Shown here in pieces: positions 23,105 through 62,679 of a DNA stretch of 64,000 bases. Both the position numbers and the translations under genes were made by a program. The DNA is taken from contig NCBJ01000003.1 in NCBI GenBank assembly GCA_002255585.1, positions 21,571 to 85,570 on the forward strand. Reading direction: 5' to 3'. The notes beneath the pieces are model-generated. The model did not search any database and was not told the DNA's origin. It saw only the letters and a program-made list of their open reading frames with translations. The DNA comes from Parcubacteria group bacterium 21-54-25 (GTDB taxonomy: Bacteria > Patescibacteriota > Minisyncoccia > Phycocordibacterales > Phycocordibacteraceae). Each line of letters opens with the position of its first letter. Positions within the stretch are counted from its first letter, which is position 1.

Positions 23105-23340
23105 TGTAATGGCGCCTCCCGTGTCTTGGACGTGCTGCGGAGTACCGTCGACCCGTCCATCGGTTTGTTTGCGTGGGGTCATGGCTTTTTCCTCCTTGTT
23201 GAACTGACCGGCAGAACACCACGAGAACCGTGCCGTGCTGCCGGCAGTTCGCAAGAAGAACCACCCCGCGATCTTTCCGCGTCAAAGAGCTACCCAAGAA
23301 CCAGTATATCAGGTAAAAAATTTCAGGAACGCAACCGGAC

Positions 23341-23909: not shown

Positions 23910-24413
23910 ATGAGCGAGAAACGGGAAGTGTTCCGTCGTGTGGAGACCGATGGCCCCTGCACGGCCATACGCGAGCTCACGCCCGACGAGGTGATCGGGG
24001 AAGCGAAGCGGATCATCAAGGCGCGCTTCCGGCGCGGGCGCAGGATCGCCCAGCCCAGGGACGCCGAGGATTACCTCATCCTCACCCTTGGCGACCGCGA
24101 GCAGGAGGTCTTCTCCTGCCTCTATCTCGACCAGCGCCACCGGGTAATCAGCTGCGACCTCATGGCCTTCGGCACCCTGGCCGAGGCCCGAGTCTACCCG
24201 CGGGAGATCGTCAAACGAGCCATCCTTTACAACGCGAGTTCGATCATCTTCGCCCACAACCATCCCTCGGGCGTCGCCGAGCCCAGTAAGGACGACGAGG
24301 CGCTCACGCGCCGACTTTCCGACGCCCTTCGCCTCATCGACGTCCGCGTACTCGACCACTTCGTCGTAGGGGGAGGCGAGACGGTGACCTTCGCCGAGCG
24401 CGGGTTGCTGTGA
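23910..24413 (+). CDS. radC: RadC-like JAB/MPN domain protein (second copy, ~70% identical to 20950..21453)
   Basis: HNHPSGVAEPSKDDEALT motif and the same length (167 aa). Confidence 0.85.
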   Translation: MSEKREVFRRVETDGPCTAIRELTPDEVIGEAKRIIKARFRRGRRIAQPRDAEDYLILTLGDREQEVFSCLYLDQRHRVISCDLMAFGTLAEARVYPREIVKRAILYNASSIIFAHNHPSGVAEPSKDDEALTRRLSDALRLIDVRVLDHFVVGGGETVTFAERGLL

Positions 24414-35155: not shown

Positions 35156-37216
35156 GTGTCCTCGAACTGGCGGAATTGGTTTCGGACGCCCGGGGCCCTC
35201 GGGGAGGCGAAGGACACCGAGCGGCTATACGCTGAGGTGCAGGAGGCCTCCGCGCGATCCCCCCTTGCCGATGAGCATGCCCTGGACACGTTCCTGCTCG
35301 AATTGATCGATGAGATCTGCGCCCGGCACGACCTCACCCCCTCCATACCCCTCGGCGAGGCCCTCTGGGCCGCGATCCGGGGCCTCCTCTATGCCGAGGG
35401 CTTCCTCCTCGACCTGCCCGACCGGGCGTCGCTTGCACGGCTCACGGTGGAGGAGGGCGTGCTCCTGCGCGCCGCCCTTACGCGCCACCTGCGGTTCCTC
35501 ACCGACCATGCGCGCCTCCTTTCCATCTGGCGCGAGAAGCTCGTCTGGCTCTTCTCCGGCATCCTGGGATCCCTCCCGGTATCGGCCCTCCGGGAACCCA
35601 CGGAGGGCGCAGATGACACTCTGGTGTTCCCAGAGGCCCCGATCGCCGCGCTCCTGGAGAACCTGCCGGAGGCCCTCGACCGCACCATCGCGACCTTCTT
35701 CGACGAGGACATCGCAAACGCCCACCTCTTCGAGCGGATGCGGGAGCGCCTGGAGGACAACGCCCTTGTCGCCTCCGGCATCCCGCGGGAGCGCGGGAAC
35801 GCCCCCTCGGGCAAGGCCCTGCTCCCGAGCGAACGCCACGACAAGTCGGGTGACTACCTGGTCGAGGCATACTTCCGCGGGACCCCGCTCCTCGACTTCT
35901 TCCGGAGCCCTCTCCCGTTTGCCATCCCCGCGCCGGTACGCCTTGAGCACATGCATATCCTCGGCGGTACCGGACACGGCAAGACCCAGTTGATCCAGTA
36001 CCTCCTCACGAGGGAGCAGGGCGGGTTCTGCGTCATCGATTCCCAGGGCGACATGATCGAGAAGATCGCCAGGCGCTTTCCGGACGTGATCCTCCTTGAC
36101 CCCACGGACGTGGCCCATCCGCTTGCCCTCAACATGTTCGACATGAAGACCAAGGACGAGGCGGAGTTGAACGCCACCATCGCCCTCTACGAGTACATCT
36201 TCAGCGGTCTGTTGGGCGCCGAGCTCACCCAGCGGCAGAGCCTCCTCTTCGGGTCGATCGCTCGCCTCATGCTCCTGGTCCCTGACGCGACCATCCATAC
36301 GCTGATCGACGTCATGGAGCATGGGGAGCGGTTCAAGCCGTACATGGAGCGCCTCGGCGGCACCGCCGCCCGGTTCTTCGAGGAGCAGTTCTTCCAGAAG
36401 TCGTTCCAGGCCAACAAGCAACAGATCCTTGCCCGCCTCTATGGCGTCCTGGAGAACCGGACCTTCGACCGGATCTTCTCGGCACCCAGGAACAAGATCG
36501 ACTTCTTCGAGGCGATGAACGCGGGCAAGATCGTGCTCGTCAACACCGCCAAGTCGTTCTTCCAGGCGGAGCGCTCCTCGATCTTCGGCCGGTTCGTGAT
36601 CGCGATGATCGCGCAGGCCGCAGTCCGGCGGGCGTCCATCCCTGAGTCGAAACGCACCCCCTGGTTCGTCTACATCGACGAGTTCCACGAGTACGTGCGC
36701 GGTGGTGACCGCCAGGTTGAGGACCTCTTCAACCAGGCGCGCAAGTACCGGGTGGGACTCATCTGCTCACACCAGAACCTGGGCCAGCTCGAGGACAAGC
36801 TCCGGGCCACCATCATGGCCTCGACCGCGATCAAGATCGCGGGCGGCGTCTCGGCCAAGGATGCGCAGTTCCTCGCCCAGGAGATGCGCTGCCAGAAGGA
36901 GGCGATCCTGAATACCCGCAAGCGCGAGCGCGGCGCCGAGTGGATCTGCGCGGTGCGCAACCTCGGCACCCAGAAGGTGACCTGCCCGTTCGGAGCGCTC
37001 GAAGCCATGCCCGAGCGCCCCGACTATGATGCATTCCTCGAAGAGAACCGCCGCCGGTATGCGATGCAGCCCGAAGAGCGCACCAAGCACCACGAGGAAG
37101 AGCAAGTACAACCGCGGGAGAGCGAATCAAAATCAGCAACAGGATCAGGTGGGCAAAAACCAGTACAACCGGACCAACGGGAACGGGATGATTCGAATGA
37201 CGACATCTGGGGATAG
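35156..37216 (+). CDS. Type IV coupling protein-like (TraD/TraG/VirD4-family) P-loop ATPase
   Basis: Walker A HILGGTGHGKTQL, Walker B FVYIDEFHEY, SHQNLGQL motif, acidic C-terminal tail. GTG start. Confidence 0.55.
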   Translation: MSSNWRNWFRTPGALGEAKDTERLYAEVQEASARSPLADEHALDTFLLELIDEICARHDLTPSIPLGEALWAAIRGLLYAEGFLLDLPDRASLARLTVEEGVLLRAALTRHLRFLTDHARLLSIWREKLVWLFSGILGSLPVSALREPTEGADDTLVFPEAPIAALLENLPEALDRTIATFFDEDIANAHLFERMRERLEDNALVASGIPRERGNAPSGKALLPSERHDKSGDYLVEAYFRGTPLLDFFRSPLPFAIPAPVRLEHMHILGGTGHGKTQLIQYLLTREQGGFCVIDSQGDMIEKIARRFPDVILLDPTDVAHPLALNMFDMKTKDEAELNATIALYEYIFSGLLGAELTQRQSLLFGSIARLMLLVPDATIHTLIDVMEHGERFKPYMERLGGTAARFFEEQFFQKSFQANKQQILARLYGVLENRTFDRIFSAPRNKIDFFEAMNAGKIVLVNTAKSFFQAERSSIFGRFVIAMIAQAAVRRASIPESKRTPWFVYIDEFHEYVRGGDRQVEDLFNQARKYRVGLICSHQNLGQLEDKLRATIMASTAIKIAGGVSAKDAQFLAQEMRCQKEAILNTRKRERGAEWICAVRNLGTQKVTCPFGALEAMPERPDYDAFLEENRRRYAMQPEERTKHHEEEQVQPRESESKSATGSGGQKPVQPDQRERDDSNDDIWG

Positions 37217-38183
37217 CGGCTATGCTCTTTACCCAATGGGCGCTCTCCGACAATCGAAGTTCACACGCTCCGCGGCTAGGTCCTCGGTCCGCATCGGCGC
37301 GTACCAGATCGACATCGTCGATGCCGTCTACCGCTTCCGCTACCTCACGGCGCCCCAGATCGCCGCGGTCCTTGATCGCCATCCCGACTCGGTGAAGCGC
37401 GCGGTGCGGGGGCTATACGACGCGCGATACCTGCTTCGCCCTCGCTGCCAGCGCGATCCCGCACCCTGGCAGACCACCCCCATCTATCACGCCATCTCCG
37501 CAAAGGGCGCGGAACTCCTGAGGGAAGAGCGCGGCTACAACGTGCCGAAGAACGGCTTCGACGCCAAAGAAAGTCAGGAGCACATCGCTAACTGGAGGCA
37601 TGACACCGCGCTCTCTGAGTTCCTGGTGAAGCTGCTCGTCGACGTTAGAAAAGAGGGCCAGCTTGAACTCTTGTTCCCGCGGGACCTATTGGAGCGGGGT
37701 ATCATCGCACCCGACGTGCCTTGGCAGCCCTACGCTTGGAAGCCGCTTCAATGGAGCACGGCCAAAGGCACGGTGGTGCCGGACCAAGCGGTCATGTTCC
37801 AGGATCCCGGCCGGCCCGAAGGGCAGAACCGCTCGCTCCTCCTCATTGAACTAGATCGAGGTACCGAGGCCATGGAGCGGGTTCGCAACGATAGCAACAC
37901 GATCCGAGGCAAACTGGAGAAGTACATCGCGGCGTATGGGGAAGGCAAACACACCGAGACCTTTGGCGTCCGGAACATGCGGGTCGCGTTTGTCACGACT
38001 TCTCAGCAGCGTATTCACGGTATGCAGAGACTCCTGTACGATATGGGTGTTGAGCGGCGCATGTTCCTGTTCTCAACGATCAAGGAGACGCGGGAGTGCG
38101 TGAGCCTGCTTGCTCTTTCGTGGGCGGACAACCGGGGCGATGTCGCCTATCTTACACGCATTGATAGGCGAGGAAGCGGCTAG
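37188..38183 (+). CDS. Replication-relaxation (Replic_Relax) family protein
   Basis: Winged-helix N-terminus (YRFRYLTAPQIAAVL) and LLLIELDRGTE region, typical of this ICE/plasmid family. The start is uncertain (ATG at 37188). Confidence 0.5.
   Translation: MIRMTTSGDSGYALYPMGALRQSKFTRSAARSSVRIGAYQIDIVDAVYRFRYLTAPQIAAVLDRHPDSVKRAVRGLYDARYLLRPRCQRDPAPWQTTPIYHAISAKGAELLREERGYNVPKNGFDAKESQEHIANWRHDTALSEFLVKLLVDVRKEGQLELLFPRDLLERGIIAPDVPWQPYAWKPLQWSTAKGTVVPDQAVMFQDPGRPEGQNRSLLLIELDRGTEAMERVRNDSNTIRGKLEKYIAAYGEGKHTETFGVRNMRVAFVTTSQQRIHGMQRLLYDMGVERRMFLFSTIKETRECVSLLALSWADNRGDVAYLTRIDRRGSG
37660..37757 (+). repeat. ~98-bp imperfect direct repeat (about 88% identity) with 39390-39487
   Basis: ttgttcccgcgggacc..ttggagcgggg..atcatcgca..ccgacgtgccttggcagccctacgc..agccgcttcaatggagc occurs at both loci. 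Confidence 0.7.
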
Positions 38184-38449
38184 CGTGCCTGAGGGCGGTG
38201 AGCCCCAACCTCTGATAGGAAGATGCGTGGCCTTCTGGATACGTGTCTGCCGGTTATTCTCCGGTTTCCGGGTATTGCCCGATACAATCTCGCAAACGCA
38301 GGGAGTCCGGTTGACGGTTCGACGCTGGTTGCAGGCGTGGTCGACCAAACACGCGGAACGATGTCTCCGAGTGGACCCGATCGACGCGAGCGGCCTAGGA
38401 AACTCGTAGGCCAGTGCCGGGAAGGCGCCTGAGCTGCATAGTGTGACGT

Positions 38450-38615
38450 TATGGCACTAGTCATCTGAGACTAGAGGCTCGCTTTAGTTCTCTTTGCGTT
38501 CTGCGGTTCAGTTATATCCTGCTCATAGTCATACTTATTTATCGGTCGCGTGAGACCACTGCTACACGTCGGAAGGGACTATGGGCTATAGTCTCTCAAG
38601 ACTAGTGGTGTCTCC
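38450..38615. promoter_or_regulatory. Putative origin/iteron region. Repeated GAGACTAG/GACTAGTGG motifs flank an AT-rich stretch, upstream of the RepA-like gene.
   Basis: cactagtcatctgagactagagg and tatagtctctcaagactagtggtg around the AT-rich cagttatatcctgctcatagtcatacttatttatc. Confidence 0.3.
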
Positions 38616-38669
38616 TTGTTTGGGCTGGTGGTTCTCTATATGGTTAGCCTATCGTTGTTCCGGAGGACC

Positions 38670-39176
38670 ATGAAAATGACGGAAGGTCAGAATACCGCGA
38701 TCGCGGAAGTCATCTCGCTCCCAAAGAAGGATTCCTCACGGGCGTCCACGAAGAAATGGGGCGCGGCGGTGATGCAGCTTGGCTTCAGTGTCCTCCCATC
38801 CCTCGTTTTCCGCGCGCAGGCACGCCTTGGGCTAAGCCCGACACAGCTAGCAATCCTGCTCCAGTTGGCCGACTACTGGTGGGACCATCAGCGCAAGCCC
38901 TATCCGAGCAAGAGAGCGCTCAGCGAACGTCTCGGCCTGGGTCCCCGCCAAATTCAGCGTCACATCGCTGAGCTCGAGGCTGCGGAATTGGTGCGGCGGA
39001 TTGAACGGCGAGCCGCGCATCGGGGTAAGCTCAGCAATGAGTACGATCTCAGTGGACTTGTGGAGCGCCTGAAGAAGCTTGAGCCCGAGTTTCGCGAAGC
39101 GGGTCAATCGAAACGCCGCGCGAGCCGTCGTGGCGGTCTCGGGAAGCATGGGTTGTCCGGTAGCAAGAAGCGTTAA
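38670..39176 (+). CDS. Winged-helix DNA-binding protein (RepA/HTH_36-like, putative replication initiator or regulator)
   Basis: LSPTQLAILLQLADYWWDHQRKPYPSKRALSERLGLGPRQIQRHIAELEAAELVRR, basic C-terminal tail, GGAGGA RBS. Confidence 0.45.
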   Translation: MKMTEGQNTAIAEVISLPKKDSSRASTKKWGAAVMQLGFSVLPSLVFRAQARLGLSPTQLAILLQLADYWWDHQRKPYPSKRALSERLGLGPRQIQRHIAELEAAELVRRIERRAAHRGKLSNEYDLSGLVERLKKLEPEFREAGQSKRRASRRGGLGKHGLSGSKKR

Positions 39177-39183
39177 TCGTAGA

Positions 39184-39293
39184 AGCGGCGTAGCTCAGCG
39201 GGAAGAGCGTCCCTGCTTTCGACATCCACTGAAGCCAACATCTCCAGTGTATGGGCGGGAAGGTCACAGGTTCAAGTCCTGTCGCCGCTACCA
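39184..39293 (+). tRNA. tRNA gene with a ~30-35-nt intervening sequence in the anticodon region. The probable anticodon is UCG (Arg), uncertain. CCA is encoded.
   Basis: Perfect acceptor (AGCGGCG/CGCCGCT), D arm (GCTC-AGCGGGAA-GAGC) and T arm (ACAGG-TTCAAGT-CCTGT), then A-CCA. The anticodon stem CCTGC/GCGGG encloses loop TTTCGAC plus an insert with its own hairpin (CCACTG..CAGTG). Confidence 0.55.
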
Positions 39294-39393
39294 AATTCCC
39301 GTGTGTCGAGCGCGACGATGCCCTCGGCGGTTGCGTGTAAACCATGGGTTCCGAGCGAAGCGGAGGCCCATCTTATACCACTAAGGAACCTCT

Positions 39394-39487
39394 GAGCTGT
39401 TGTTCCCGCGGGACCGATTGGAGCGGGGCCTCATCGCATCCGACGTGCCTTGGCAGCCCTACGCCTGAGAGCCGCTTCAATGGAGCC
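39394..39487 (+). pseudogene. Relic fragment of a Replic_Relax-family gene
   Basis: Translates to LLFPRDRLERGLIASDVPWQPYA*, matching LLFPRDLLERGIIAPDVPWQPYAW of 37188..38183, with TGG changed to TGA. Confidence 0.5.
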
Positions 39488-39714
39488 ATGATAAGTGGTA
39501 AGTATCAGAGTGCTCGGCCCGCTGGTTGCACTCTACTAAAATCAATTCCTACACTCTAGGCGGTAGCGGTTCTACGGGAACGTAAAGACGCGCAAGGAAG
39601 ACGGCGCTATGCGTGTCAAGTGGCAATCTAGGAAAGCCTTTCCATTTGAGACGCTGTAATATTCTCAGCCACCCAATGCTGGGTCGCAGTAGCACCCAGA
39701 GTCCAGGCCCCCAA

Positions 39715-40374
39715 TTAGTAAGTAAACACATCTCCTATACCCTGTATATCGAGTTTTACACGTGTCGGAAGATATTCGAAGGAGGCAAGTGCCTGATCCC
39801 ATCTAGCCTTCTCCTCTAGGCGGCTCTGCAGTGCAGCCAACAGAGACGGCAAATAAATTACATCGTCCACAGCATACTGTAGTTGATTCTGCGATAGCTC
39901 ATGCGAAAACCAATCTGACCGCGCGTACCCCTTGGGAATGCCTATTCCAAGGTGGTAATTGAGGATATCTTTCAAGCTGTGAGAGCCAATCGGATTGTCA
40001 TTCAGAATCTTTGAGGCGACCTTTGTGCAGGAAATATTCTTGATGTCACACTTCCAATGGGCGGCCATGAAACGCAAATCAAAAACAGCGTGGTGAAATA
40101 TCTTTTTTACATTCTGGCTCGCTATTAGCTTGGCAAGATTAATTGGCGGCCGCTCTTTCTGGATACGCACAATCACCGCTATCCCGTTAGGCCTGTATAG
40201 CTGACAGGTGGCAATGTCATCGTGCTCCCAACTCAAGCCAGTGGTTTCAATATCCAAGGCAACGACCTTTCCATCTACGAAAGATAGAAACAAGTCATCA
40301 CTGATGTCAGCGCCGACGACCTTCACCCCAACAGTGCCATCAACACTAGGAAGTATCGTATCAATTTCGGACAT
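39715..40374 (-). CDS. DEDDy-type 3'-5' exonuclease (RNase D/WRN-exo-like)
   Basis: VALDIETTGL (Exo I), HHAVFDLRF (Exo II), YAVDDV (Exo III, Y-x3-D). Confidence 0.8.
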   Translation of the reverse strand: MSEIDTILPSVDGTVGVKVVGADISDDLFLSFVDGKVVALDIETTGLSWEHDDIATCQLYRPNGIAVIVRIQKERPPINLAKLIASQNVKKIFHHAVFDLRFMAAHWKCDIKNISCTKVASKILNDNPIGSHSLKDILNYHLGIGIPKGYARSDWFSHELSQNQLQYAVDDVIYLPSLLAALQSRLEEKARWDQALASFEYLPTRVKLDIQGIGDVFTY

Positions 40375-40398
40375 TGTTTAAATACTAACACGCAATTG

Positions 40399-41256
40399 TT
40401 ATGTAGGTTGGGATCCTTCTTCCAACGTTCTAATCTGCTTTTCTAGGAAGTGCCAGAGAAATCCACCTTTTTTAAACGTGACTACGATAATGCCACCTCG
40501 CCCAGAATTGTACTTTGGCAAACTAAATAACGCGATATCTTTAAAGCGGTAAAACGGAAGAGATGGCGCTACACTAACAACATCGACTGACAAATGTGCT
40601 GTCCCGTCTTGAAATATCTGCTTAATATCACGAATTGCACCAGCCACCCTCTCCTTAACACTCCCCGGGTCCGTTGCGTACATATTAGCCAACTGCCCCA
40701 TGAGCGTCTCGTCTTCCGGGTTAGGCAATAGGAACTTCACGTCGGCACCCGGAGTTTTTGCGAGCTTTACGAAACTCTGCTCTCGGGAATGTCTCCAGGA
40801 GCTGGCATACCCAAAAAAGAACCGATAAGGGCCGCCACTCTCAAATAACACATCCCAATCGATCTCGCCTTGAAAATCGTCTACGCTGGAGATTGATACA
40901 AGTCCCGCCTCCTTGATCGCCAGCGACACGCCTACATGAGATAGGAGCTCGCGAGTCAGTCGTCTCTTAAGCAAGAGATCCCAGAATGCGGCCAGTACCG
41001 ACGAGGTCGAAATTACTGCGCCGCCCTCGCGCATGAGCGCCGAATACCAGTGTGGGTTCTTAGGGCTATCCGTCAAGTGTGCGAGATACATGAGGAACAG
41101 CCCGAAAAAAAATGCGACAAGTACCCACACGATTGTCCAAGCGGTTGTCAATTCCTTTTCTGGCATCCATTGTTTTTGTTTGTTCACGTTGTCCTCCCAT
41201 GACATCGACGCCCCCCACGGACTTGAGTGGCGCGCCGATTTAGAGTCCAATCCCAC
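40399..41256 (-). CDS. Membrane-anchored protein of unknown function, co-oriented with and 25 nt upstream of the exonuclease gene
   Basis: N-terminal TM helix (TTAWTIVWVLVAFFFGLFLMYLAHL) and a ~230-aa soluble domain with no recognised motif. Confidence 0.45.
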   Translation of the reverse strand: MGLDSKSARHSSPWGASMSWEDNVNKQKQWMPEKELTTAWTIVWVLVAFFFGLFLMYLAHLTDSPKNPHWYSALMREGGAVISTSSVLAAFWDLLLKRRLTRELLSHVGVSLAIKEAGLVSISSVDDFQGEIDWDVLFESGGPYRFFFGYASSWRHSREQSFVKLAKTPGADVKFLLPNPEDETLMGQLANMYATDPGSVKERVAGAIRDIKQIFQDGTAHLSVDVVSVAPSLPFYRFKDIALFSLPKYNSGRGGIIVVTFKKGGFLWHFLEKQIRTLEEGSQPT

Positions 41257-41278
41257 ACGGAGAGGAGATTAGGCATTG

Positions 41279-41386
41279 CGCCTCTCGTCTGCCGAGAGCT
41301 CTGCTTGCACATCGAGGACAAAGGCGACCTTTTCGATGAGCCCGGATTTCTGATTCTTGCGCAGCAACAGCTTCATGGCGTTCCTC
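41279..41386 (-). pseudogene. Truncated homolog (36 codons then stop) of the 34775..35155 small protein
   Basis: MKLLLRKNQKSGLIEKVAFVLDVQAELSADERRNA* against MKLLLRRNQKSGLIGKVSFTLDVRAELSADEQRNIAKYK. Confidence 0.5.
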
Positions 41387-41418
41387 CCGTGAATTGGTGA
41401 TGCCCCAATCCCATCCGA

Positions 41419-42630
41419 TTATTGTCCCAAAGTGCCGCCAGCCTCAAGCTCCCCGGGATGAAGCGTCCGGGCGCTAAAGGGCCGCGAGGGTGTCCCGTCG
41501 ATCATAAGGCGCAGGTATATATGGTGGTTGGGGAGGTTCACGAGATCCTCCGTGGAGAACGTCGGCGCGAACTCCCGGGCAAGGAATGGCGCGTCGTGGG
41601 GCCCCACCCGAAAGGAGATCACCGTGCCCACGTTCCCCAAGACTGCGTGACGGATCTCCGGCGCAAGCTGGTCGAGGTACTGGTGCACAAGCACCATGCC
41701 GACCCCGTACTTCCTGAGTTCCGAGGCCATGGTGACCAGGGCGAGCGTGGTGAAGTGCTGGAACTCGTCGAGATAGAGGAAGAAAGGGCGGCGCTCGCGC
41801 TCCGGCACCTCCGCCCGGCTAAAGGCCGCAAGCCCGATCGTGGTCACGAGGAGACCCCCAAGGAGGTGCGCTGCGTCCTCGCCAAGCCTTCCTTTTGAGA
41901 GGTTCACAAGGAGGACGACGCCGCCCTCGTCCATGAGCCGCCGGACCCCGATCGGTTTCTCGGGAGCGCAGAGAATCCGACGAAGGGTCGGATCGGCGAG
42001 AAACGCCCCCACCTTGTTCTGGATCGGGGCGATCGCCTCGGAGCGCATCCGGGGCGTATATCGCTCGTATTCGCGAAGCAGGAACTCGGCCACCTGCGGG
42101 TTCGTCGTGGTCCGCCCCACCCGACGCCGGAATTCGCGTTCGTCAAGCAGCCGGGGCAGGTCGAGGAGTGTTGCGTCCGGATAGTCCAGGAGCGCGAGGA
42201 GCGCGTTGCGGAGGATGTGCTCCATCCTGGGGCCCCAGGCGTCTTCCCACATCTTCTTGAACACCTCAAGCATCCCGGCGGCCGCAAGCGGCCGCTTCTC
42301 GGGCGCCACCTGTTTGAGAGGATTGTATCCATAGGGCTGATGCGGATCCGGAGCGTCCATGTATATGCACGTCTCCCGGCGGGCCGGGGGAACCTGAGCC
42401 GCAAGTCGCTCGACGAGATCGCCGTGGGGGTCAAGGAGAGCGAGTCCACGGCCCGCAGCGAGATCCTGGCGGATGAGCGTCTCTAGGAGCGTGCTCTTTC
42501 CGGTTCCGGTTTGACCGATCGCGTACAGGTGCAGCAACCGATCACGCTCTTTGATGCCAAAGCGGGTACGCTGGTTGCGGAAGTCGGTTTTGGCGAGGTA
42601 CGTAACCTGATGTCTTTCAGTGCGGGGCAT
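41419..42630 (-). CDS. T4SS coupling-protein-like/HerA-FtsK-like P-loop ATPase (TraD/TraG_D_C-type), shorter paralog of the family seen at 35156..37216
   Basis: Walker A YAIGQTGTGKSTLL, Walker B FFLYLDEFQHF, LVHQYLDQL motif. It lies in an isolated GC-rich 1.2-kb patch. Confidence 0.55.
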   Translation of the reverse strand: MPRTERHQVTYLAKTDFRNQRTRFGIKERDRLLHLYAIGQTGTGKSTLLETLIRQDLAAGRGLALLDPHGDLVERLAAQVPPARRETCIYMDAPDPHQPYGYNPLKQVAPEKRPLAAAGMLEVFKKMWEDAWGPRMEHILRNALLALLDYPDATLLDLPRLLDEREFRRRVGRTTTNPQVAEFLLREYERYTPRMRSEAIAPIQNKVGAFLADPTLRRILCAPEKPIGVRRLMDEGGVVLLVNLSKGRLGEDAAHLLGGLLVTTIGLAAFSRAEVPERERRPFFLYLDEFQHFTTLALVTMASELRKYGVGMVLVHQYLDQLAPEIRHAVLGNVGTVISFRVGPHDAPFLAREFAPTFSTEDLVNLPNHHIYLRLMIDGTPSRPFSARTLHPGELEAGGTLGQ

Positions 42631-43007
42631 CGTTACTCAATGGTGTATGAGCCGCGTTCACGTGGGTAGAGGGGGAATGCTGCCTTGTACAAGTACCGAA
42701 CGACCACATGGTAAACATCGACAGGTCACGGTATCACCATGCGCCGCGTCTCGCTGCCGGCCGGCGCGCGTTCGCTTAACTTACTGGCAGTCCCAGTAGT
42801 AGGGAAATCTCAGCTGAATACAGGCTCCTCTGATGCCCCGGCTTTGACAAGACCGCCCCATGAGCGTATATACTCGCGGGCAATGCCATTCTTGGACAAC
42901 GGGTCGACTGACGACCCGCGGTGGCGGCCAGACCAAAGAATAATGTGCCTCGCCCTGCGCACGAACGCGCAGCTAGATGGTAAGAGGGCATAGAGGGCAA
43001 ATGTCGG

Positions 43008-43379
43008 ATGGACAGCCACTCATCAGATCATGCCGCTGGCGAGCGCGCTGATCTAGAGACCACGAGAACCGTCCTCAGATATCAACTCGCTGCCCTTATT
43101 GCGAAGCTCCTCGGAGTGGCATTATGGATATTTTTTGCGGTGGTTTGGCCGTTAAAGATAACCGCGGGTAAGACCACTATCGTTAATGTCCTTTTCCATA
43201 TGATCGCGAACGTACACGCATCGGTAGCGATCTCGTGGGCAACGACAGCGGGGTTCGGATATCTCTGGGTTCGTGAACGACGTATTCGTAAGAAGAGTGT
43301 AAGGCGTGAACACGTCCGCATAGTGGAATTAGAGCAACTTCTAGATCCGAATCGATCCTCAAGTGGAATCGACGAATGA
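43008..43379 (+). CDS. Hypothetical membrane protein
   Basis: 123 aa with 3 hydrophobic helices. Confidence 0.35.
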   Translation: MDSHSSDHAAGERADLETTRTVLRYQLAALIAKLLGVALWIFFAVVWPLKITAGKTTIVNVLFHMIANVHASVAISWATTAGFGYLWVRERRIRKKSVRREHVRIVELEQLLDPNRSSSGIDE

Positions 43380-43529
43380 GTTCGACGGTACTGTGGATAA
43401 CGCGCTTGCCAAGAACGCACGCATCTGCTTCCCTGGTATTGGAAGCATCGATGTCCCAATTCGAAAATTTGGACATCCGCGGTCAGCCTCAGCCTTGCCA
43501 CCATGTACAGAATATAGGAGCGCACGACG

Positions 43530-44141
43530 ATGAGCGTGTCTGATCATGTGCTCATTGTGGAGGTATGCGTTAGCGTTGCGTTGCTGTGGTTTGCGTATTC
43601 CTTCATGTTCCAGAAAACCCGCACCGACGCATTCCAAGAAGATTTATTTACCATCCGCGATGAGCTCTTCGATTATATGTCGAGGTACAATGTACCATTC
43701 GACCTTCCCGCGTACCGTGCGATGCGTGACCTGCTTAACGGAGCTATCCGCGTTGCGCATTTCCTCAGCCTTTTCTCGATCGTGTACGCAGGCGTTGTGC
43801 GGTCTAGGAGTGCCGTATCTCCAAACACCGTCCAACTCGCAATAGGCAACATTGACGATACCGATGTGAGGGAACACTACCAGTACGTATATCTGAAGGT
43901 TCAGAAGCGCTTTTTGCAGTACTTCTTTCTGGAAGGGCTGCGTAGTCTCATCTTTACGCCTCTGTATCGCTATATGAAGCGACTAGGAATGAGGCCGCGC
44001 GTGCGCGCATTCGTTAGTGGTATGCGAAACGAACTCCTGGAGGAATTCGTCCAGTTCGGCAAAAAGGATTCGCTGGGGGCGCATATCTTACTGGCCGTGA
44101 CACGTGGCCAACGTCATCGTAAATCGTCAAAGGCAGCCTAA
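43530..44141 (+). CDS. Hypothetical protein with an N-terminal TM helix
   Basis: 203 aa with no recognised motif. A terminator-like GCCAACC-agggatg-GGTTGGC lies downstream. Confidence 0.4.
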   Translation: MSVSDHVLIVEVCVSVALLWFAYSFMFQKTRTDAFQEDLFTIRDELFDYMSRYNVPFDLPAYRAMRDLLNGAIRVAHFLSLFSIVYAGVVRSRSAVSPNTVQLAIGNIDDTDVREHYQYVYLKVQKRFLQYFFLEGLRSLIFTPLYRYMKRLGMRPRVRAFVSGMRNELLEEFVQFGKKDSLGAHILLAVTRGQRHRKSSKAA

Positions 44142-44362
44142 TGAGCCAACCAGGGATGGTTGGCTTCTCTATACTATCGGCTATATTTTGTCGCCTATTC
44201 GAATCCGGTGGCTACACGGGCCTGATTTGGTGCAGAAAGTGACATAGCACATCTATATACACTTCTGGTGTTTCCCTTTCTGCTCGACTGTGCTTATAAT
44301 ACTATAAGTTAATTGTTCTTTATAACATACTGATTCAACGGTGGTTATGTAGGAGATCAGAA

Positions 44363-44869
44363 ATGATTAACGCTGCTCTGCTCGAAACGGTCAGTGACGA
44401 GAGCGATGCGCGGCCTCCGGTATTTTGGGCTCTAGACCCGCGCCTACCACGGATCGCAGCCCAAGCAGCAGTTGAATTTGACTGGCTTGTGCAACAGAAG
44501 ACCGGTAACAATCTTCCGCATGTCTCTCGCGAAGCAATCAATGCACTTCACTTGCTATTGAGCGAGTCTACGGGGACCGCTCAGCCGGGTGGTCCAGACA
44601 ACAAGGGGTTCGTCGATACGCTAGGGCTAAATCTATTTGCCAAAGCGTATAACGCGTCGCACACGGGCCATCCTGTACGCACCCGAGACGAGTTGGATAC
44701 CGCAATGCGGCAGCTCGTAGACTCACTTTATCGGGCTGGGGAGAATAACGAGCTTGCCGAGAACATCTTGGCCGATATGCGGGATTTTTGTGCGAAACTT
44801 TCTGACTATGGTTCCGCCTATCGCAAGATGATTTACGGTAGCCGACAAGAACATCCTTACAGGAAGTAG
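44363..44869 (+). CDS. Hypothetical protein
   Basis: 168 aa, low-GC, immediately upstream of the HExxH/Dcd-like pair. Confidence 0.4.
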   Translation: MINAALLETVSDESDARPPVFWALDPRLPRIAAQAAVEFDWLVQQKTGNNLPHVSREAINALHLLLSESTGTAQPGGPDNKGFVDTLGLNLFAKAYNASHTGHPVRTRDELDTAMRQLVDSLYRAGENNELAENILADMRDFCAKLSDYGSAYRKMIYGSRQEHPYRK

Positions 44870-44949
44870 TGCTCGGCGCGCACATAACACACAATCAGCA
44901 GCCAATGTTTACGACTGAAGAACTGGATTAGAAGGTCCAGTTCTTTTTT

Positions 44950-46233
44950 ATGTTGGACTGGAGTTCGGAGCAGGAGGGCCGGCTGATGACGCCAGTCGAC
45001 TGTGCGAAGCAGAAGGTCAGTGCTGTAATTGATACCATCAATTCTGTACGCGAGCTCGATTTTCCGTACGAGCCTCCGCGCGAAGCGGTAGATTTTATTC
45101 GTAACATTTTCAGCGACCATCTCCAGCACCTAGACGGTATTTCAGCGGGGGGAACAGCCGCTCGCACCATGTGCAGGCAGGTTTCCGAAGATATTGATAA
45201 TTTCCTACTTGCTGTCGGCTTCATGGTGCGCGCCTGTGACAACCATGGCGCACTTGAGTTGCAAAGGCCACTGATGAGGCTGACACATCGAGCGATCGCC
45301 CCCCAGATAAAACTCATCATCTCTTCAGACTGGCGTTTTTCACCCTTCACTCTCTTATATCCCGGAGAATTCGGGGATAAGTTTGTCCTGGTTGGTCTTC
45401 CGATTTCCGAGGCGAGTAATCCACTCATAGCTCCCCTTGCCGGACACGAGCTAGGGCACAACATTTGGCGACGTCTGCCAGCATTCAATGTTCATATAAG
45501 CGAACAAGTAAAAAGCAAAGTGACCGAAACGATCAAGTCAGGCTTATGGGAGGAGTTTTCGAAGGCGTTCAACTTGAAGAACAAGGAAGACATAGATCAG
45601 GACGATCTCTTTGGAGCTATTTCTCCGTGGCAGCTAGCGAAAGTTTGGGCGCTATCACATTGCGAAGAGATGTTCTGCGATTTTATCGCGCTTACGATAT
45701 TTGGAGAAGGCTATCTGCATGCCTTCCAATACTTAATATCACCCGGCGGCGGCTTCCGAAATCCCACCTATCCCAGCATGCGAGATCGTATCGCTGCGTT
45801 AGTCGTGGCGTGTCAGGGGATCGGACTTACCGTTTCGAGAGGGTTTAGCGAGGAGTTTGATGAGTCGGACGTAAGCTCCGACCATCGGCAGCAGCTTCTC
45901 CTGCAAGTAAGTGACGATGTGTCACGAAGCCTGACAACCGACCTCGCCGAAGCAGCCAAGACTTGGTGCGAACAGCGGGGCGTAATCAATCGAAATCCCA
46001 ACGATGTCAATCGTATTGTATCGCTATTCAAGCGCGTCATTCCGGCCACCGGTGCTGAGAGTTTGGCAGATATAATCAATGCAGCTTGGTGCATTTATCT
46101 AGATCCCGTGAATCCGTGGGAGCACGACTACCCAATTACGAATAAACCGGAACGGCGAGCGTCGCTTACTCGCGAGCTTGCCCTGAAAAGCTTCGAGGTG
46201 TTTGAGATCGAAAGAACGCAGGAGGATACGTAA
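44950..46233 (+). CDS. HExxH zincin-like metallopeptidase-domain protein (AGHELGHNIW plus downstream Glu)
   Basis: A single HELGH motif at ~residue 165 with acidic residues ~50 aa later (HCEEMFCDF). Its stop overlaps the start of the Dcd-like gene (ATGA at 46231-46234). Confidence 0.45.
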   Translation: MLDWSSEQEGRLMTPVDCAKQKVSAVIDTINSVRELDFPYEPPREAVDFIRNIFSDHLQHLDGISAGGTAARTMCRQVSEDIDNFLLAVGFMVRACDNHGALELQRPLMRLTHRAIAPQIKLIISSDWRFSPFTLLYPGEFGDKFVLVGLPISEASNPLIAPLAGHELGHNIWRRLPAFNVHISEQVKSKVTETIKSGLWEEFSKAFNLKNKEDIDQDDLFGAISPWQLAKVWALSHCEEMFCDFIALTIFGEGYLHAFQYLISPGGGFRNPTYPSMRDRIAALVVACQGIGLTVSRGFSEEFDESDVSSDHRQQLLLQVSDDVSRSLTTDLAEAAKTWCEQRGVINRNPNDVNRIVSLFKRVIPATGAESLADIINAAWCIYLDPVNPWEHDYPITNKPERRASLTRELALKSFEVFEIERTQEDT

Positions 46234-46907
46234 TGCCTCTATCCGCAAACGAGATTGCGAGACATCTAGATGGCGCCCCTGACCTGGCTGTCGAGGAACA
46301 ATTTGTGTTGGCGCCACGGCCGAGTACCACTAACATACGCGAAAAAGGGGCGGCGTCCGTAGATCTGAGGTTAGGCACATGGTTTGTTACGACTAAAGCC
46401 AGCCGTCACTCTCTACTCGATATTTACGCAGACGAAGCGCAACAGCCTCCTGAGCACAACCTAACGGATAGGCACTACATACCGCTTGGGAGTTACTTTA
46501 TTTTGCATCCACATTCATTTGTTCTAGCGGGAACGTTGGAGTGGATAAAGATGCCCAAAGGTTTGTGTGGGTACATTACGGGAAAGTCATCATGGGGCAG
46601 AAGAGGCCTTATCATCGAGACAGCACCCGGTATCCATCCTGGCTTCGCGGGCTGCCTCACGCTCGAGCTTGCGAATGTCGGAGAAATACCGATAAAGCTT
46701 GTTACTGGTACTGCTGTGTGCCAGCTGTTCTTGCACGAGATGGTCGGCCAAGTAAATAATGTAGATCCAAGTAGTTTCCTCGGACAAAGGCAGCCGACGC
46801 TCGGCAGGGTAACACCAGATGAGTTCGTATTGAGGCTGATGCGTGCATCAACATCGGCGACCAGTCACAACACAAAAACTGCCGATACATCAGGCTCACA
46901 ATCTTGA
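46233..46907 (+). CDS. dCTP deaminase/dUTPase-fold (Dcd-like) protein
   Basis: SVDLRLG...FILHPHSFVLAGTLEWIKMP...GKSSWGRRGLIIETAPGIHPGFAGCLTLELANVGEIPIKLVTGTAVCQLFLHEM is colinear with E. coli Dcd motifs. Confidence 0.75.
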   Translation: MPLSANEIARHLDGAPDLAVEEQFVLAPRPSTTNIREKGAASVDLRLGTWFVTTKASRHSLLDIYADEAQQPPEHNLTDRHYIPLGSYFILHPHSFVLAGTLEWIKMPKGLCGYITGKSSWGRRGLIIETAPGIHPGFAGCLTLELANVGEIPIKLVTGTAVCQLFLHEMVGQVNNVDPSSFLGQRQPTLGRVTPDEFVLRLMRASTSATSHNTKTADTSGSQS

Positions 46908-47063
46908 ATTTTGGTCGACTTTGTACCATCTGTTCATAATATGACGTGCTTATGCGTGACCCGCTGCGCGCGGGGCTTGAACAGACCGGTCTATCGTCGT
47001 GGCCTGCAAACCGCTCGCGCCGCTTGAGTAGCAGACCAGTCACACGAGTCCTATGGTAATCCG

Positions 47064-47843
47064 CTACGGCCTTCGAAGTACCTTCGCTGCTGACGAGCCC
47101 ACCTTGCGCGGGAGCAGATCAGAGAGCGCCGCTTTTGCAAAATCGAGAGTGATCGGCGCGCCGACAAAGTGCGCGTTCGCCGCCAGCCGCCGAAGGGCGC
47201 CGTCGAGTTCGCCGCCACCAGAACGCAAGTGCTTGGCCATGTAGCGGGCCACGTCGCCCGGCAACTCCACCCGTGCCGCCTGCGCCTTGCTACGGAGGAT
47301 GGCCACGCGGGTTTCAAGCTCGGGCGCCGCAAGGGCGACCGTGAGCCCCCAATTGAAGCGCGAGCGGAGGCGCGCCTCCAGCCCATCGAGCTCTTTAGGA
47401 AACCGGTCGCAGGTAACGACGACCTGCTGGTCGTTTTCAAGCAGCCACATGAAGGTGTGAAAAAACTCCTCCTGGGGCTGCTCCCTGCCGGCGAAGCACT
47501 GAATGTCATCGATCAGGAGGGCATCGGCTGAACGGTAGGAGGGGGTCTTGTCACGAAGGGTGTTGTGCTGCAGCGCGTCGTCTACCTCTGCCACAAAGCG
47601 CTCCGCGTGCCGATAGAGCACGCTGGCACCCGGGCGCTCCTGCAGCATCCCATTACCTATCGCATGGAGGAGGTGGGTCTTGCCACAGCCGGCACCCCCG
47701 TAGATAAAGAGCGGGTTGTGCGCATGCCCGGGGCACTTCGCTACCTGATGGGCAGCGGCGTACGCACGCTCACTCGATTTTCCAGTAACAAAGCGCTCGA
47801 ACGTGAGGTCGGGGTTGACGTCGCCACCTGGGGTAAATTCCAC
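47064..47843 (-). CDS. DnaA domain-III-only AAA+ protein. It lacks DnaA domains I/II and the C-terminal DNA-binding domain IV.
   Basis: LTFERFVTGKSSERAYAAAHQVAKCPGHAHNPLFIYGGAGCGKTHLLHAIGN and ALLIDDIQCFAGREQPQEEFFHTFMWLLENDQQVVVTCDRFPKEL...LRSRFNWGLTVALAAPELETRVAIL are colinear with DnaA domain III. GC-rich patch. Confidence 0.75.
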   Translation of the reverse strand: MEFTPGGDVNPDLTFERFVTGKSSERAYAAAHQVAKCPGHAHNPLFIYGGAGCGKTHLLHAIGNGMLQERPGASVLYRHAERFVAEVDDALQHNTLRDKTPSYRSADALLIDDIQCFAGREQPQEEFFHTFMWLLENDQQVVVTCDRFPKELDGLEARLRSRFNWGLTVALAAPELETRVAILRSKAQAARVELPGDVARYMAKHLRSGGGELDGALRRLAANAHFVGAPITLDFAKAALSDLLPRKVGSSAAKVLRRP

Positions 47844-48583
47844 GGAGAAATCCCTCGCTCACTTTGTCGGCTGATGCAACGGGTGCTCAGGGAGGACAAA
47901 CAGTCTACGGCGTACGCTCTCCCCGCGCCACGTCCACATACGTAGCGAGAGGATTCCTCATCCCGACCGCGGAGGCAGCGCGGTAGCGACTTCCCGCGGG
48001 GCCGCCTCGGATATCGCCGTCGTTCCGGGCTCGCGCTTCATAATCGCTGCTGCGGGGCTCTAATTTGGCGCCGCGCGAGCGCGATCCGGCCGTGAGCGGC
48101 AGAAAAGCATCGCTCACCCCCAGACAGTGTCCGTTTTCTTTACACCGGATCTTCGCCTGAAATCTCTATATTGCGCAGGCGGTTGCCTGCGCCACCTTCT
48201 TGGCCTGCCCGCTTCACTACTACCCGCCCTATCGCTGGTGGAACTACTATGGGCGGATTACTTCCCGATGCGGTATCTCTCCCACAACTACCGGTTATTC
48301 CGATTGTTTGTGAGATTCTTCGAGCCATAGGCGTCCCCGATCATGTCACGTTTTTTTACATTTTAAATTCGTTCTAGCCAGATCGTAGCCACCACCGCGC
48401 TTCAACTTATTGTTTTAACGCCAGGCGCTACGCATTGGCCCGCATATTGCTGCGGGATTGGGCCATTGATTGAGAGGATGCACGAGCCCCGATTGGACGT
48501 AACACGGAACCGCACAGGCTCGATTCGGGTCGTCAGACCGACCCGAGTACCACAAGTGACGAAAGCGTGGCTCAGGAGGAGGC

Positions 48584-48953
48584 ATGAGACAGTTTGGTAC
48601 ATACGTGAGTTCTGCGACCTTGCTTGCCTTTGTTGTCACGTGGCCATCCCTCCTATACGTAACAGATTTCGTCGCAGGCGATATTTTTATCGGCGTGAAT
48701 GGCGGGACCTATTACCATTACGACTCCAATGGCCACCTCTCTCGAAACGCTGAGTGACGGTCTTGGCGGGTATACAACAGGCTGTGCATTCGATGCGAAC
48801 GGAAATCTCTATACGACCAACTTTAGTAATACCTTTGCGATTAGAGACGCAAGAGATCAGCGCACCGAGTCGTGGATTGCAAGTGGAACGCTGTCCCAGT
48901 TACCTCGCCGATCTGTCAATGGGATTGTTCGACTGCGCGGGAGAAGGCCATGA
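48584..48953 (+). pseudogene. Possible frameshifted NHL/SMP30-like beta-propeller gene fragment with an N-terminal signal peptide
   Basis: ATG with a GGAGGAGG RBS gives MRQFGTYVSSATLLAFVV...GDIFIGVNGGTYYHYDSNGH, then a stop. Related repeats (GGYTTGCAFDANGNLYTTNFSNTFAIRD) continue in another frame. Confidence 0.25.
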
Positions 48954-50311
48954 ACCACCAGATTAGCGCTACGACCACAGCGGGACTAATGCTCGGGATA
49001 CTCTCGTTCTTCGTAGTCCAAGCTAGCGCCGGGGTTTGTCCTCCGATTGGCAACGACAGTGGTTGTGGCGTTGTCATCAATGTGACAAACACCGGCGGGG
49101 CTCTTTCATTTAATCAGAACCAGGGACCTTATGACGGCATTGACGACACCTTGGTGGGGATCACCAATAACAGCAGTCAATCGCTCCATGATATCGGCTT
49201 GGCATCCACTAACTCCATTTTCGGCTTCGACTTTGACGGCATCGATGCCTATGGATCGCAGGGTAACCCTTCCGACGCAAACGGATATGGCGGCCCCAAC
49301 GCCTACTACTCCCACATCAACGCTACGCAAACATCAGGAACGGTAAATTTTGTGAGCCCGATACCTCCTGGCGGGGTGGGGTATTTTTCGTTAGAGAACG
49401 CGTTAACGGCTCCGACGCCCTGTCAGCAGATTGTCAATAACGCCGTCTCCGGACCGATCCTCGGTGGCCGACTTGGCAGCTTCCTTGCTGAACCGACCGA
49501 CATCGGGAGTAGCTTTACACCGAACCTCGGTCTCGGCCTCTCTCAAGCCGCCGCAGATTGCGGCTTTACGAACTTTGACTGGGTGCAGACCATTACAAAT
49601 GAGCCAGATCCGAGCCCCTTCTATGCAGTCAATGCTCAGGATCCGTCCTCGCCTATCCACATGACGAACGCGCGTACCCCCTTCAACGATCCACCCCCCG
49701 GTGGCTATACGTATTGTCTGCCGAGCTTTGGCTACACCTGTAACGATGCGCCTTTTTATTACAGCGTGACTGCTCCAAGCACAAACGGGTTTGCGCTGCA
49801 AAATCATGAGACGACGAACGTACTTTCCTTCTTCGACGCCCCCAAAGATCCGTGTTTAGGAATCCAGGGCCTATTGCTAGCTGAGTGTGATTACAGCATG
49901 GCTCCAATAGGCAGCAAGGAAGCATTCACGACCGATCTGGCTGGGGTACTTCCAGACGGTTCTGCCCTTGATCTAGGAATAGGCTTTAGCTGGACAGATG
50001 ATTTCAACGATATTAGTGGAGGGATCGCGACTACGTTGAATAACATGCCGGTCGATCCGGGTAGCGGAACTGGTGGAATCACCGTTACCCATATACAGCC
50101 CACTACGGATTACCAGTTTCAGCTACCTCCCGTAACCGTGACGACTGTCAACGGGGTTCCGACGGTGGCCGAGCCGCCGACTCTTTGCCTAGTTGCGCTA
50201 GGGCTGCTCCTGATGTGGGGGATGAGTACCGCTCACCTGCGTCACCAGCGGCTGCGGTCTTCCCAAACCGCTTTGTGGCCGCGGCACTCAGGATCGGATA
50301 GGCAATGCTGA
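48950..50311 (+). CDS. Secreted protein with an N-terminal signal peptide and a PEP-CTERM-like C-terminal sorting signal
   Basis: MNHQISATTTAGLMLGILSFFVVQASAG signal. The C-terminus VAEPPTLCLVALGLLLMWG plus an R/H-rich tail resembles a PEP-CTERM variant. Confidence 0.5.
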   Translation: MNHQISATTTAGLMLGILSFFVVQASAGVCPPIGNDSGCGVVINVTNTGGALSFNQNQGPYDGIDDTLVGITNNSSQSLHDIGLASTNSIFGFDFDGIDAYGSQGNPSDANGYGGPNAYYSHINATQTSGTVNFVSPIPPGGVGYFSLENALTAPTPCQQIVNNAVSGPILGGRLGSFLAEPTDIGSSFTPNLGLGLSQAAADCGFTNFDWVQTITNEPDPSPFYAVNAQDPSSPIHMTNARTPFNDPPPGGYTYCLPSFGYTCNDAPFYYSVTAPSTNGFALQNHETTNVLSFFDAPKDPCLGIQGLLLAECDYSMAPIGSKEAFTTDLAGVLPDGSALDLGIGFSWTDDFNDISGGIATTLNNMPVDPGSGTGGITVTHIQPTTDYQFQLPPVTVTTVNGVPTVAEPPTLCLVALGLLLMWGMSTAHLRHQRLRSSQTALWPRHSGSDRQC

Positions 50312-50732
50312 TGATAAACGCAAGGACGAGGCCGACGGCTGCGTGTGGCCCGGGTGCTATCGGGACAGCTAAGCTGATAATGCCCCAAAACCCGCCAAGC
50401 ACGCCAAGCAACATAAGGATGCCCGCTGCAGCGGTGATAAGGCGTGGAGGCACGTATTTATAGTAGCAGATCCAGGCGACAAGTACTTTGACACGCACCG
50501 CGCACGAGTGGGTCCATCCTCGATGGAGATCCCGCTACACCGACGACCAGATCTGGCAGTATGCGCGGATAATTGGCATAGAAAGCGTGACGCGCAACCC
50601 CCCTTTCGCAGGTACTCTACGTAAACATTCGATACGCTCCGTACGTCTATAACAGGGGATATAATATAGGAGTCGTTTCGCGATAGCGCCACCCCCTCTC
50701 CAAGAGCCAGTGGGTATCAAGCTCAAGCACTA

Positions 50733-51207
50733 TTGGCGAACGGAACCAACAGCTGTATCGTTCCGGTGGTCCCTGCCAAAATTAATAACAGGTATCAATT
50801 TACCTTTACGGCACAACCAAACAAGTTGTACTGGGTTGACCCCACAATCGCAACCGGCTACGACTATCAGGTTCTGTCCGGGCCGAACTTCGCTTCGGTC
50901 GTATTGCCATACGAAGGGGGCGGTTTATACAACCTATCGCTGTTCGATTCAATGAGCGCTACCTACATATTTGACACCACCGTTACGGCCGGCATTTTAC
51001 AGCGCTCCGGGAACTGCTGTTCCGGAGCCAAATTCATTTGCTTTGGTGGGTCTCGGACTGGCGATCTTATTCATGTATAGGCGCCGTCGCCATCGACGTG
51101 CTCGCCTTGCCAATCAGAAGGGAGACGGTCCAGGTACCAGCGCTCCTCCGGAGGAACAGGACGTATGGTGGTACTCCCCGAGAAGGGGCTCTTTTGTTGG
51201 CCAGTGA
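50733..51207 (+). pseudogene. Frameshifted PEP-CTERM protein. The body is in one frame and a canonical VPEP-TM-RRRRHRR anchor in another.
   Basis: The frame starting at 50733 encodes 115 aa. The frame starting at 50971 encodes AVPEPNSFALVGLGLAILFMYRRRRHRR. Confidence 0.4.
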
Positions 51208-62400: not shown

Positions 62401-62679
62401 CCGCTCGGTGGCAAGGCACAAAATGGCGGACAACGTTTTGGAGAAATGGAGGTATGGGCACTGTTGGGTTATGGCGCAGCGTATATGCTGCGCGAGATGC
62501 TCACCATCAAGTCAGACGACATTCAAGGCCGCTCCGCTGCCTTCGACGCGATCGTGAAAGGAGACCCGATCAGCCACACCGGCACCCCGGCTTCATTCTC
62601 TGTCCTTACTAATCAAATACGCGGTCTCGCGCTCGACGTCGAGCCGGTAGAACTTCCGCCTGGCGCTGAAGTCGAATAA
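59500..62679 (+). CDS. rpoB: DNA-directed RNA polymerase subunit beta
   Basis: 1059 aa with canonical rpoB blocks (e.g. [21 protein letters not shown]). Confidence 0.97.

Follow-up and report, generated by a model that had tools for sequence, protein, structure and literature searches.

The locus described here lies in the window, the 64-kb stretch of DNA that was analysed as a whole. An ORF of 259 codons on the minus strand covers domain III of DnaA, a short out-of-frame piece of domain IV adjoins it, and both lie in a GC-rich patch next to a three-gene module. The place and size of the ORF, which starts with GTG, agree with what the earlier note had given. The features are as follows, in window coordinates.

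47064..47843, minus strand: 259-aa ORF, GTG start at 47843-47841, TAG stop at 47066-47064; residues 8-246 are DnaA domain III and residues 247-259 a new tail, product of the frameshift
47112..47837, minus strand: in-frame DnaA domain III homology, profile positions 106-347 of 447
47107..47111, minus strand: frameshift site, five nucleotides where relatives have two codons
46966..47106, minus strand: out-of-frame start of DnaA domain IV, relative residues ~357 to ~392-402 of ~450
47844..48100, minus strand: GC-rich DNA upstream of the ORF, no detectable DnaA domain I/II homology
46960..48100, no strand: compositionally foreign patch, ~1.15 kb, 55-75% GC in 60-nt windows
44363-46907, plus strand: three-gene module, 168 aa, 427 aa and DCD (dCTP-deaminase-like)

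Domain content of the ORF and its out-of-frame continuation

The ORF had been described as DnaA domain III alone, and this description holds. Pfam Bac_DnaA matches residues 10-169 (E = 2e-58), and residues 8-246 correspond to positions 103-341 of the 437 positions of the NCBIfam DnaA equivalog model TIGR00362, with a score of 311.3 bits that is under the cutoff of 343.9. DnaA_N and Bac_DnaA_C are both missing from the 259-aa ORF according to Pfam. The Walker A string GGAGCGKTHLLHAIGN and box VII (RLRSRFNWGL), both of which had been pointed out before, were found, and the AAA+ features of DnaA domain III comprise Walker A and B, sensor I and the box VII arginine finger, with equivalents of K178, D235/D236, D269, R281 and R285. 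The alignment of domain III with individual relatives is gapless, at 64-66% identity in tblastn, and the closest solved structures are those of DnaA (8btg, E = 1e-68; 8bv3, E = 6e-68). An SD-like GAGGGA at 47856-47851 stands seven nt ahead of the GTG, and an in-frame TGA (47861-47859) lies five codons upstream of that start. A promoter scan with a sigma-70 consensus, which may not suit a CPR host, returned no sigma-70-like promoter for the ORF, the terminator scan returned none on its strand, and DnaA boxes were not clustered nearby (1 match, 0.99 expected).

With regard to the C-terminus, the earlier note had seen no remnant in neighbouring frames, which proved wrong: domain IV homology continues in a second frame directly after the homology of the ORF. 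A profile built from 60 full-length relatives was searched in all six frames of the 64-kb window, and its positions 350-382 matched 47008-47106 (QGGLVSSEGTSKAVADYHRTRVTGLLLKRRERF); in tblastn, individual relatives showed 47-50% identity to this segment over 32 aa. Frameshift-aware alignment of the stub scored 73, compared with 34 +/- 5.6 for shuffled DNA, and extended the homology to ~46966-46994, which is residue ~392-402 of the ~450 in the relatives. The five nucleotides that stand in place of two codons point to a one-base deletion at the domain III/IV junction, after which translation stops 13 codons on. A second frameshift inside the stub, near 47030, is possible. What survives of domain IV is its first ~35-45 residues, out of frame, and the homology stops at the drop in GC.

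No frame of the 64-kb window contains the final ~55 residues of domain IV (profile positions 383-447), nor was further DnaA-like sequence found in any of them. An N-terminal remnant had likewise not been seen in the earlier note, and the upstream region 47838-48400 gave nothing beyond shuffled controls: frameshift-aware alignments for domain I/II with five relatives scored 30-49, against 31-37 +/- 4-5 for shuffled DNA, and each relative placed its match at a different spot. Domain I (DnaA_N) and the linker gave neither a Pfam match nor a profile match. Of the ~450 residues of a DnaA, the DnaA-derived DNA covers no more than ~106 to ~395-400. The truncation is shown by the adjacent stub to be secondary and not an old architecture.

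The earlier note had raised the case of in-frame domain I/II or IV sequence beside the ORF, that is, a simple assembly frameshift; the neighbouring stub is out of frame and domain IV is incomplete. Since the end of domain IV is absent from every frame of the window, a DnaA is not regained by repairing the frameshift, and a simple assembly error does not explain the locus. More generally, we regard it as highly improbable that the locus is an artefact of assembly or binning, whether through gammaproteobacterial DNA joined to a contig of Paceibacterota or through a frameshift introduced by sequencing error into an otherwise intact dnaA. The exact 259-aa protein has one database record, labelled DnaA of a Candidatus Paceibacterota MAG, and occurs in three assemblies (two from NCBI and one from Logan, SRR5352536) that are 100% identical to the window over 37064-50366, both junctions of the patch included. 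The three assemblies are probably from one sample and are thus not independent, and the concordance is imperfect, with a 236-nt segment at ~50436 that distinguishes the two NCBI assemblies from the window. However, frameshift correction restores no gene, as the homology covers only the first ~35-45 residues of domain IV and domains I/II are absent. The patch measures only ~1.15 kb and has DNA of ~51-54% GC on both sides, and there are many such alternations in the window, which argues against an end-to-end chimera. Furthermore, an identity of 59-66% to any known DnaA indicates that this is not the stray normal dnaA of a co-assembled gammaproteobacterium.

The 236 nt are present at ~50435/50437 in both NCBI assemblies (L001, L002 7171-7406), are missing from the window and have no match elsewhere in it; they reflect a difference between assemblies or an indel in the population.

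Relatives and divergence of the fragment

Apart from the protein itself, the best 120 word-index matches are essentially all full-length DnaAs (~445 aa) with 61-66% identity. The few partial calls among them still contain domain IV, and the named relatives in this set are Gammaproteobacteria, for example Steroidobacteraceae, Thioalkalivibrio and Thiohalomonadaceae. An exhaustive HMMER search over 1.84 billion cluster representatives found no closer relative, the best single-stretch match being 61%, and none was found in JGI metagenome contigs, plasmids and phages; the phage families gave only weak DnaC-like matches. Homologs with the same truncation, which the earlier note had proposed to look for, did not appear in any of these searches, nor did anything above 66% identity. 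The short matches were either gene calls that are partial or frameshifted or derivatives that arose independently and are unrelated, and no ortholog of the 259-aa protein was found among 15 billion proteins. The fragment is truncated at both ends with respect to all relatives, and there are no orthologs with the same architecture. DNA identity between the ORF and its relatives is ~69%, with synonymous sites saturated.

The best-scoring proteins of the exhaustive search (P0121-P0126, P0128, P0131) each have two DnaA-domain-III stretches. Lengths in this group of tandem DnaA-like AAA+ proteins are 560-700 aa, except for two of about 1900 aa.

Domain III of the fragment is 59-66% identical to 116 DnaAs, which are themselves 78-98% identical to each other; E. 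coli DnaA, for comparison, is 73-81% identical to the same 116. The NJ terminal branch of the fragment is 0.275, against a median of 0.008 (~30 times) and a maximum of 0.084. The fragment is changed in 34/153 of the columns that are >=95% conserved among gammaproteobacterial relatives and in 7/54 of those >=90% conserved across diverse bacterial DnaAs; in genuine DnaAs, the same 54 columns show a median of 2 changes, a 95th percentile of 6 and a maximum of 11. The only 100%-invariant column among the 54, R334, is one of those changed: the sensor-II arginine is replaced by glycine at residue 211 of the ORF (R334G in E. coli numbering), in a column that is Arg in 100% of 108 diverse DnaAs. This arginine is needed for ATP hydrolysis, RIDA and DDAH (PMC5742627). 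Both ssDUE-binding residues, V211 and R245 of the H/B motifs (PMC5716108), are changed as well (V211D and R245Q), as are L176C, F222K, F239C and K243R. The fragment retains the Walker A lysine, Walker B, sensor I, box VII R281, the arginine finger R285, AID-1 R227 and AID-2 L290. Where conserved sites are replaced, the mean BLOSUM62 is 0.12, compared with -0.25 +/- 0.26 for random single-base mutation (P = 0.08), the replacements being hardly more conservative than those expected at random.

The 237 codons of domain III contain no stop and no indel. In a substitution-only simulation, the probability of finding no stop over domain III was ~0.11-0.18. Bacterial pseudogenes have a deletional bias, and neutral decay is expected to bring indels too, so the chance survival of 237 intact codons is still less likely than simulated. 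The stub has kept 11/21 conserved positions and domain III 119/153 (Fisher p = 0.017).

These features bear on an expressed stand-alone DnaA AAA+ domain III module that is kept by selection, which we consider unlikely but worth weighing. Such a module could dock on ATP-DnaA, cap or poison DnaA filaments, or modulate replication of the host or of the element, which would be an Hda-like outcome and not Hda ancestry. The intact ORF and its gapless 237-aa alignment despite a long branch, with ~20% more amino-acid divergence than the relatives show, would speak for the module and against a relic, and the greater loss of conserved positions in the stub than in domain III is the outcome to be expected from selection on the ORF. 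The SD-like motif before the GTG, the preservation of ATP-binding and interface residues (roles from PMC5742627) and the recurrence elsewhere of domain III-only DnaA-like ORFs that look maintained would point in the same direction. In contrast, the ORF is confined to one sample, has no ortholog in the protein searches above and is unrelated to the other short forms, to which it is 44-49% identical. The replacements at conserved sites are near-random, with radical changes at the universally conserved positions L176C, F222K, F239C and R334G. There was no promoter in the sigma-70 scan, with the reservation already given for a CPR host, the ORF is not conserved beside its neighbours, and the adjacent stub marks the truncation as secondary. 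In addition, the CPR host's own DnaA should be distant from a gammaproteobacterial domain III. The intact ORF, the decay of the stub and the SD-like motif would fit either selection on the ORF or an already-divergent donor paralog that was broken recently.

The GC-rich patch and the island

The GC-rich setting that had been reported for the gene was confirmed, with 63.5% GC and a GC3 of 0.74 in the ORF compared with 51-55% GC and a GC3 of 0.51-0.60 in the flanking genes. The patch is limited on the left by the dCTP-deaminase-like gene, which ends at 46907, and on the right by DNA of ~54% GC. The GC3 of the fragment matches that of the island's T4CP, relaxase-like and TrwB2 genes, which is 0.74-0.87. 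In searches for repeats of transposon or att type, either flanking the patch or matching the tRNA-Ser, only short matches at chance level came up.

The host backbone is that of Paceibacterota: rpoB (59500-62679) is 81-84% identical to that of Paceibacterota/Adlerbacteria-type MAGs, and the left flank (1-14.9 kb) is housekeeping DNA. From the tRNA-Ser (14960-15047) onward, a mosaic island of the integrative/conjugative type extends over ~32 kb (~15000-47000), which is an unusual cargo for a small CPR genome. Its genes are arranged in the following order.

First: large serine recombinase (next to the tRNA-Ser), ArdC, then a DCD-like gene
Second: Eco57I-type methylase, XhoI endonuclease, then a SIR2-like gene and a tyrosine integrase
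Third: T4CP, Replic_Relax protein, HTH_36/DnaD_N protein
Fourth: 3'-5' exonuclease, second TrwB/DUF87 ATPase, then the 168-aa, 427-aa and DCD module

The best plasmid matches of the conjugation genes are proteobacterial (Sulfitobacter, 36% and 49%; Methylomagnum, 43%). The fragment follows the last recognisable mobile-element module, which makes the proposed location at an island border plausible. The context of the fragment is not rpmH-dnaA-dnaN, unlike that of its relatives.

Several further observations concern the island itself. Its GC content swings between 47% and 67%, a second DCD-like gene is located at 22208-23254, and a direct repeat of 300 nt with 78% identity (21100-21399 and 24060-24359) lies in a GC-rich part. 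A tRNA was called at 39184-39290 on the plus strand, directly after the HTH_36/DnaD_N gene, by Rfam (51 bits; 43 nt are inserted in the anticodon region) and was not called by ARAGORN; this element may represent a tRNA that contains an intron or has been disrupted, or else a former attachment site. Just past it, at 39393-39486, sits a copy of a 94-nt piece of the Replic_Relax (relaxase-like) gene (37664-37757; 90% identity, 1.7 kb downstream), which is another gene fragment in the island. On the other side of the patch, the ORFs at 48872-50311 and 50971-51207 (plus strand) have PEP-CTERM-like tails, for example VPEPNSFALVGLGLAILFMYRRRRHRR, as read from the translations only. One would not expect the PEP-CTERM sorting signal, which is linked to the exosortase systems of diderm bacteria, in Paceibacterota.

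The DCD module at 44363-46907 adjoins the ORF directly, and an AAA+ partner of a defence system would be one conceivable role for the ORF, as third component of this module. A weak PADLOC match to mad8 (18 bits) would favour this role; it is a generic P-loop match that covers ORF residues 44-89 only. The ORF is convergent to the module, across a sharp GC break, and the module recurs in four independent relatives (L090, L091, L092, L093), in mobile or defence contexts, with different downstream genes that are never DnaA-like. These four relatives largely refute the ORF as a partner of the module, and we regard the idea as scarcely credible.

With respect to the module (~167 aa, ~420 aa and DCD), its recurrences in unrelated metagenomes adjoin TrwB/DUF87, ArdC, RadC, Bil-like and HigB genes. 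The ~420-aa module protein carries an HELGH motif and is fused to DCD in one relative (P0382, 665 aa). PADLOC gave no match for the three module proteins, which may constitute an undescribed defence module.

Comparison with known systems and origin of the fragment

Compared with gammaproteobacterial DnaA, the fragment corresponds residue for residue and without gaps in domain III, and catalytic and interface residues are kept. It differs in lacking domains I/II, in having domain IV as an out-of-frame stub, in its TIGR00362 score below the cutoff, and in the residues at R334 (Gly) and at V211 and R245 (Asp and Gln).

Hda and HdaA (TIGR03420) resemble the ORF in their similar size, in consisting of an AAA+ domain only, in their relationship to DnaA domain III and in the arginine finger, and the ORF has a weak match to Hda_lid (E = 0.0013). 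Nevertheless, it scores 111.5 bits with TIGR03420, whose cutoff is 194.8, 63.5 with NF005982 (cutoff 268) and 21 with the HdaA model NF051883 (cutoff 300), and Hda structures match it at E = 6.6e-13 or weaker. A further feature of Hda is an N-terminal beta-clamp-binding motif (PMC5742627), which the N-terminus of the ORF (MEFTPGGDVNPDL / MEFTPGGDVNPDLTFERF) does not contain. All of its best matches are DnaA, with no Hda among the relatives, and the ORF is derived from a recently broken DnaA and not from the Hda lineage. The Hda-like modulator proposed in the earlier note is therefore unsupported as a family membership, given the score below the cutoff, the lack of a clamp motif and the lack of close relatives with a similar truncation. 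A function of this general kind is possible.

The stand-alone domain III ORFs found elsewhere (P0203, P0245 and P0195) resemble the window protein in having a Met shortly before TF..FV, a stop soon after DLL, and degraded conserved motifs. Unlike it, each is 54-59% identical to some genuine DnaA, and their identity of 44-49% to the window protein indicates independent derivatives and not one family. P0203 (250 aa), beside DnaB, occurs in at least four samples with conserved neighbours, which the window protein does not have; P0245 (255 aa) lies beside a WYL regulator in GCA_000300995.1, and P0195 has 272 aa. P0203 and P0245 look maintained.

P0203 (L004 2773-4377; also L005-L007) is flanked by conserved ORFs of 156 aa and 126 aa without Pfam matches, next to a split DnaB helicase, and may belong to a replication module, as an initiator that has been split or remodelled.

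Helper ATPases of the DnaC/IstB type belong to the same AAA+ initiator/loader clade and give weak matches to the ORF (IstB_IS21, 28.7 bits; IS21 helper, 50.6 bits; PHROG DnaC-like loaders, 46 bits). These scores are an order of magnitude under the DnaA match, and the ORF has no adjoining transposase or helicase partner.

On its domains, its sensor-II arginine, its model score and its context, the ORF does not qualify as a DnaA, and on its model scores, its N-terminus and its relatives it does not qualify as an Hda; as a probable foreign gene remnant in a genomic island, it is a known kind of thing. We consider it probable, if well short of certain, that the ORF is a non-functional remnant of a foreign dnaA, or of a dnaA paralog, of gammaproteobacterial type. 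Of the two alternatives in the earlier note, the decayed foreign dnaA is the better supported. Its foreign origin is indicated by the gammaproteobacterial DnaAs that are its nearest relatives and by its GC content, set against the Paceibacterota rpoB of the backbone. Its broken state is indicated by the frameshift and stub at the domain III/IV junction, the 3' truncation, the missing domain I/II and the upstream in-frame stop. Taken together, the stub, the truncation at both ends, the foreign composition, the occurrence as a singleton and the damage to invariant residues point to a relic of a horizontally acquired dnaA or paralog. The fragment would have come with mobile DNA of a GC-rich proteobacterial source, or stayed behind from it, and would no longer be an initiator or a regulator, the 259-codon ORF being what stays readable.

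Any product of the ORF could presumably bind ATP, as the Walker A lysine, Walker B and sensor I are kept. It would not be expected to hydrolyse ATP normally, owing to the change of the sensor-II arginine to glycine, to bind single-stranded origin DNA, owing to V211D and R245Q, or to bind DnaA boxes, as domain IV is missing. On residues alone, the prediction for a product, if one is made, is an ATP-binding, hydrolysis-defective protein with no DNA binding that could present an arginine finger to ATP-DnaA. A more specific version, which we regard as quite improbable, is an expressed, island-encoded mimic of the proteobacterial DnaA AAA+ domain, ATP-locked through R334G and with no DNA binding and a preserved arginine finger, that would cap DnaA filaments and hamper initiation in a proteobacterial cell; this cell would be an alternative host of the element, or a bacterium carrying the episymbiont.

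If the ORF were functional, it would represent an independently evolved Hda-like or dominant-negative DnaA module on a mobile element, and a new route by which an element or an episymbiont could disturb replication initiation. The preservation of the arginine finger combined with the loss of sensor II and of DNA binding would then be a directly testable prediction. The public record annotates the ORF as chromosomal replication initiator protein DnaA, which is misleading, since it cannot be that protein. If it is a relic, as we think probable, the fragment is a marker of the flow of DNA from GC-rich Proteobacteria into a CPR genome through an island of the conjugative type.
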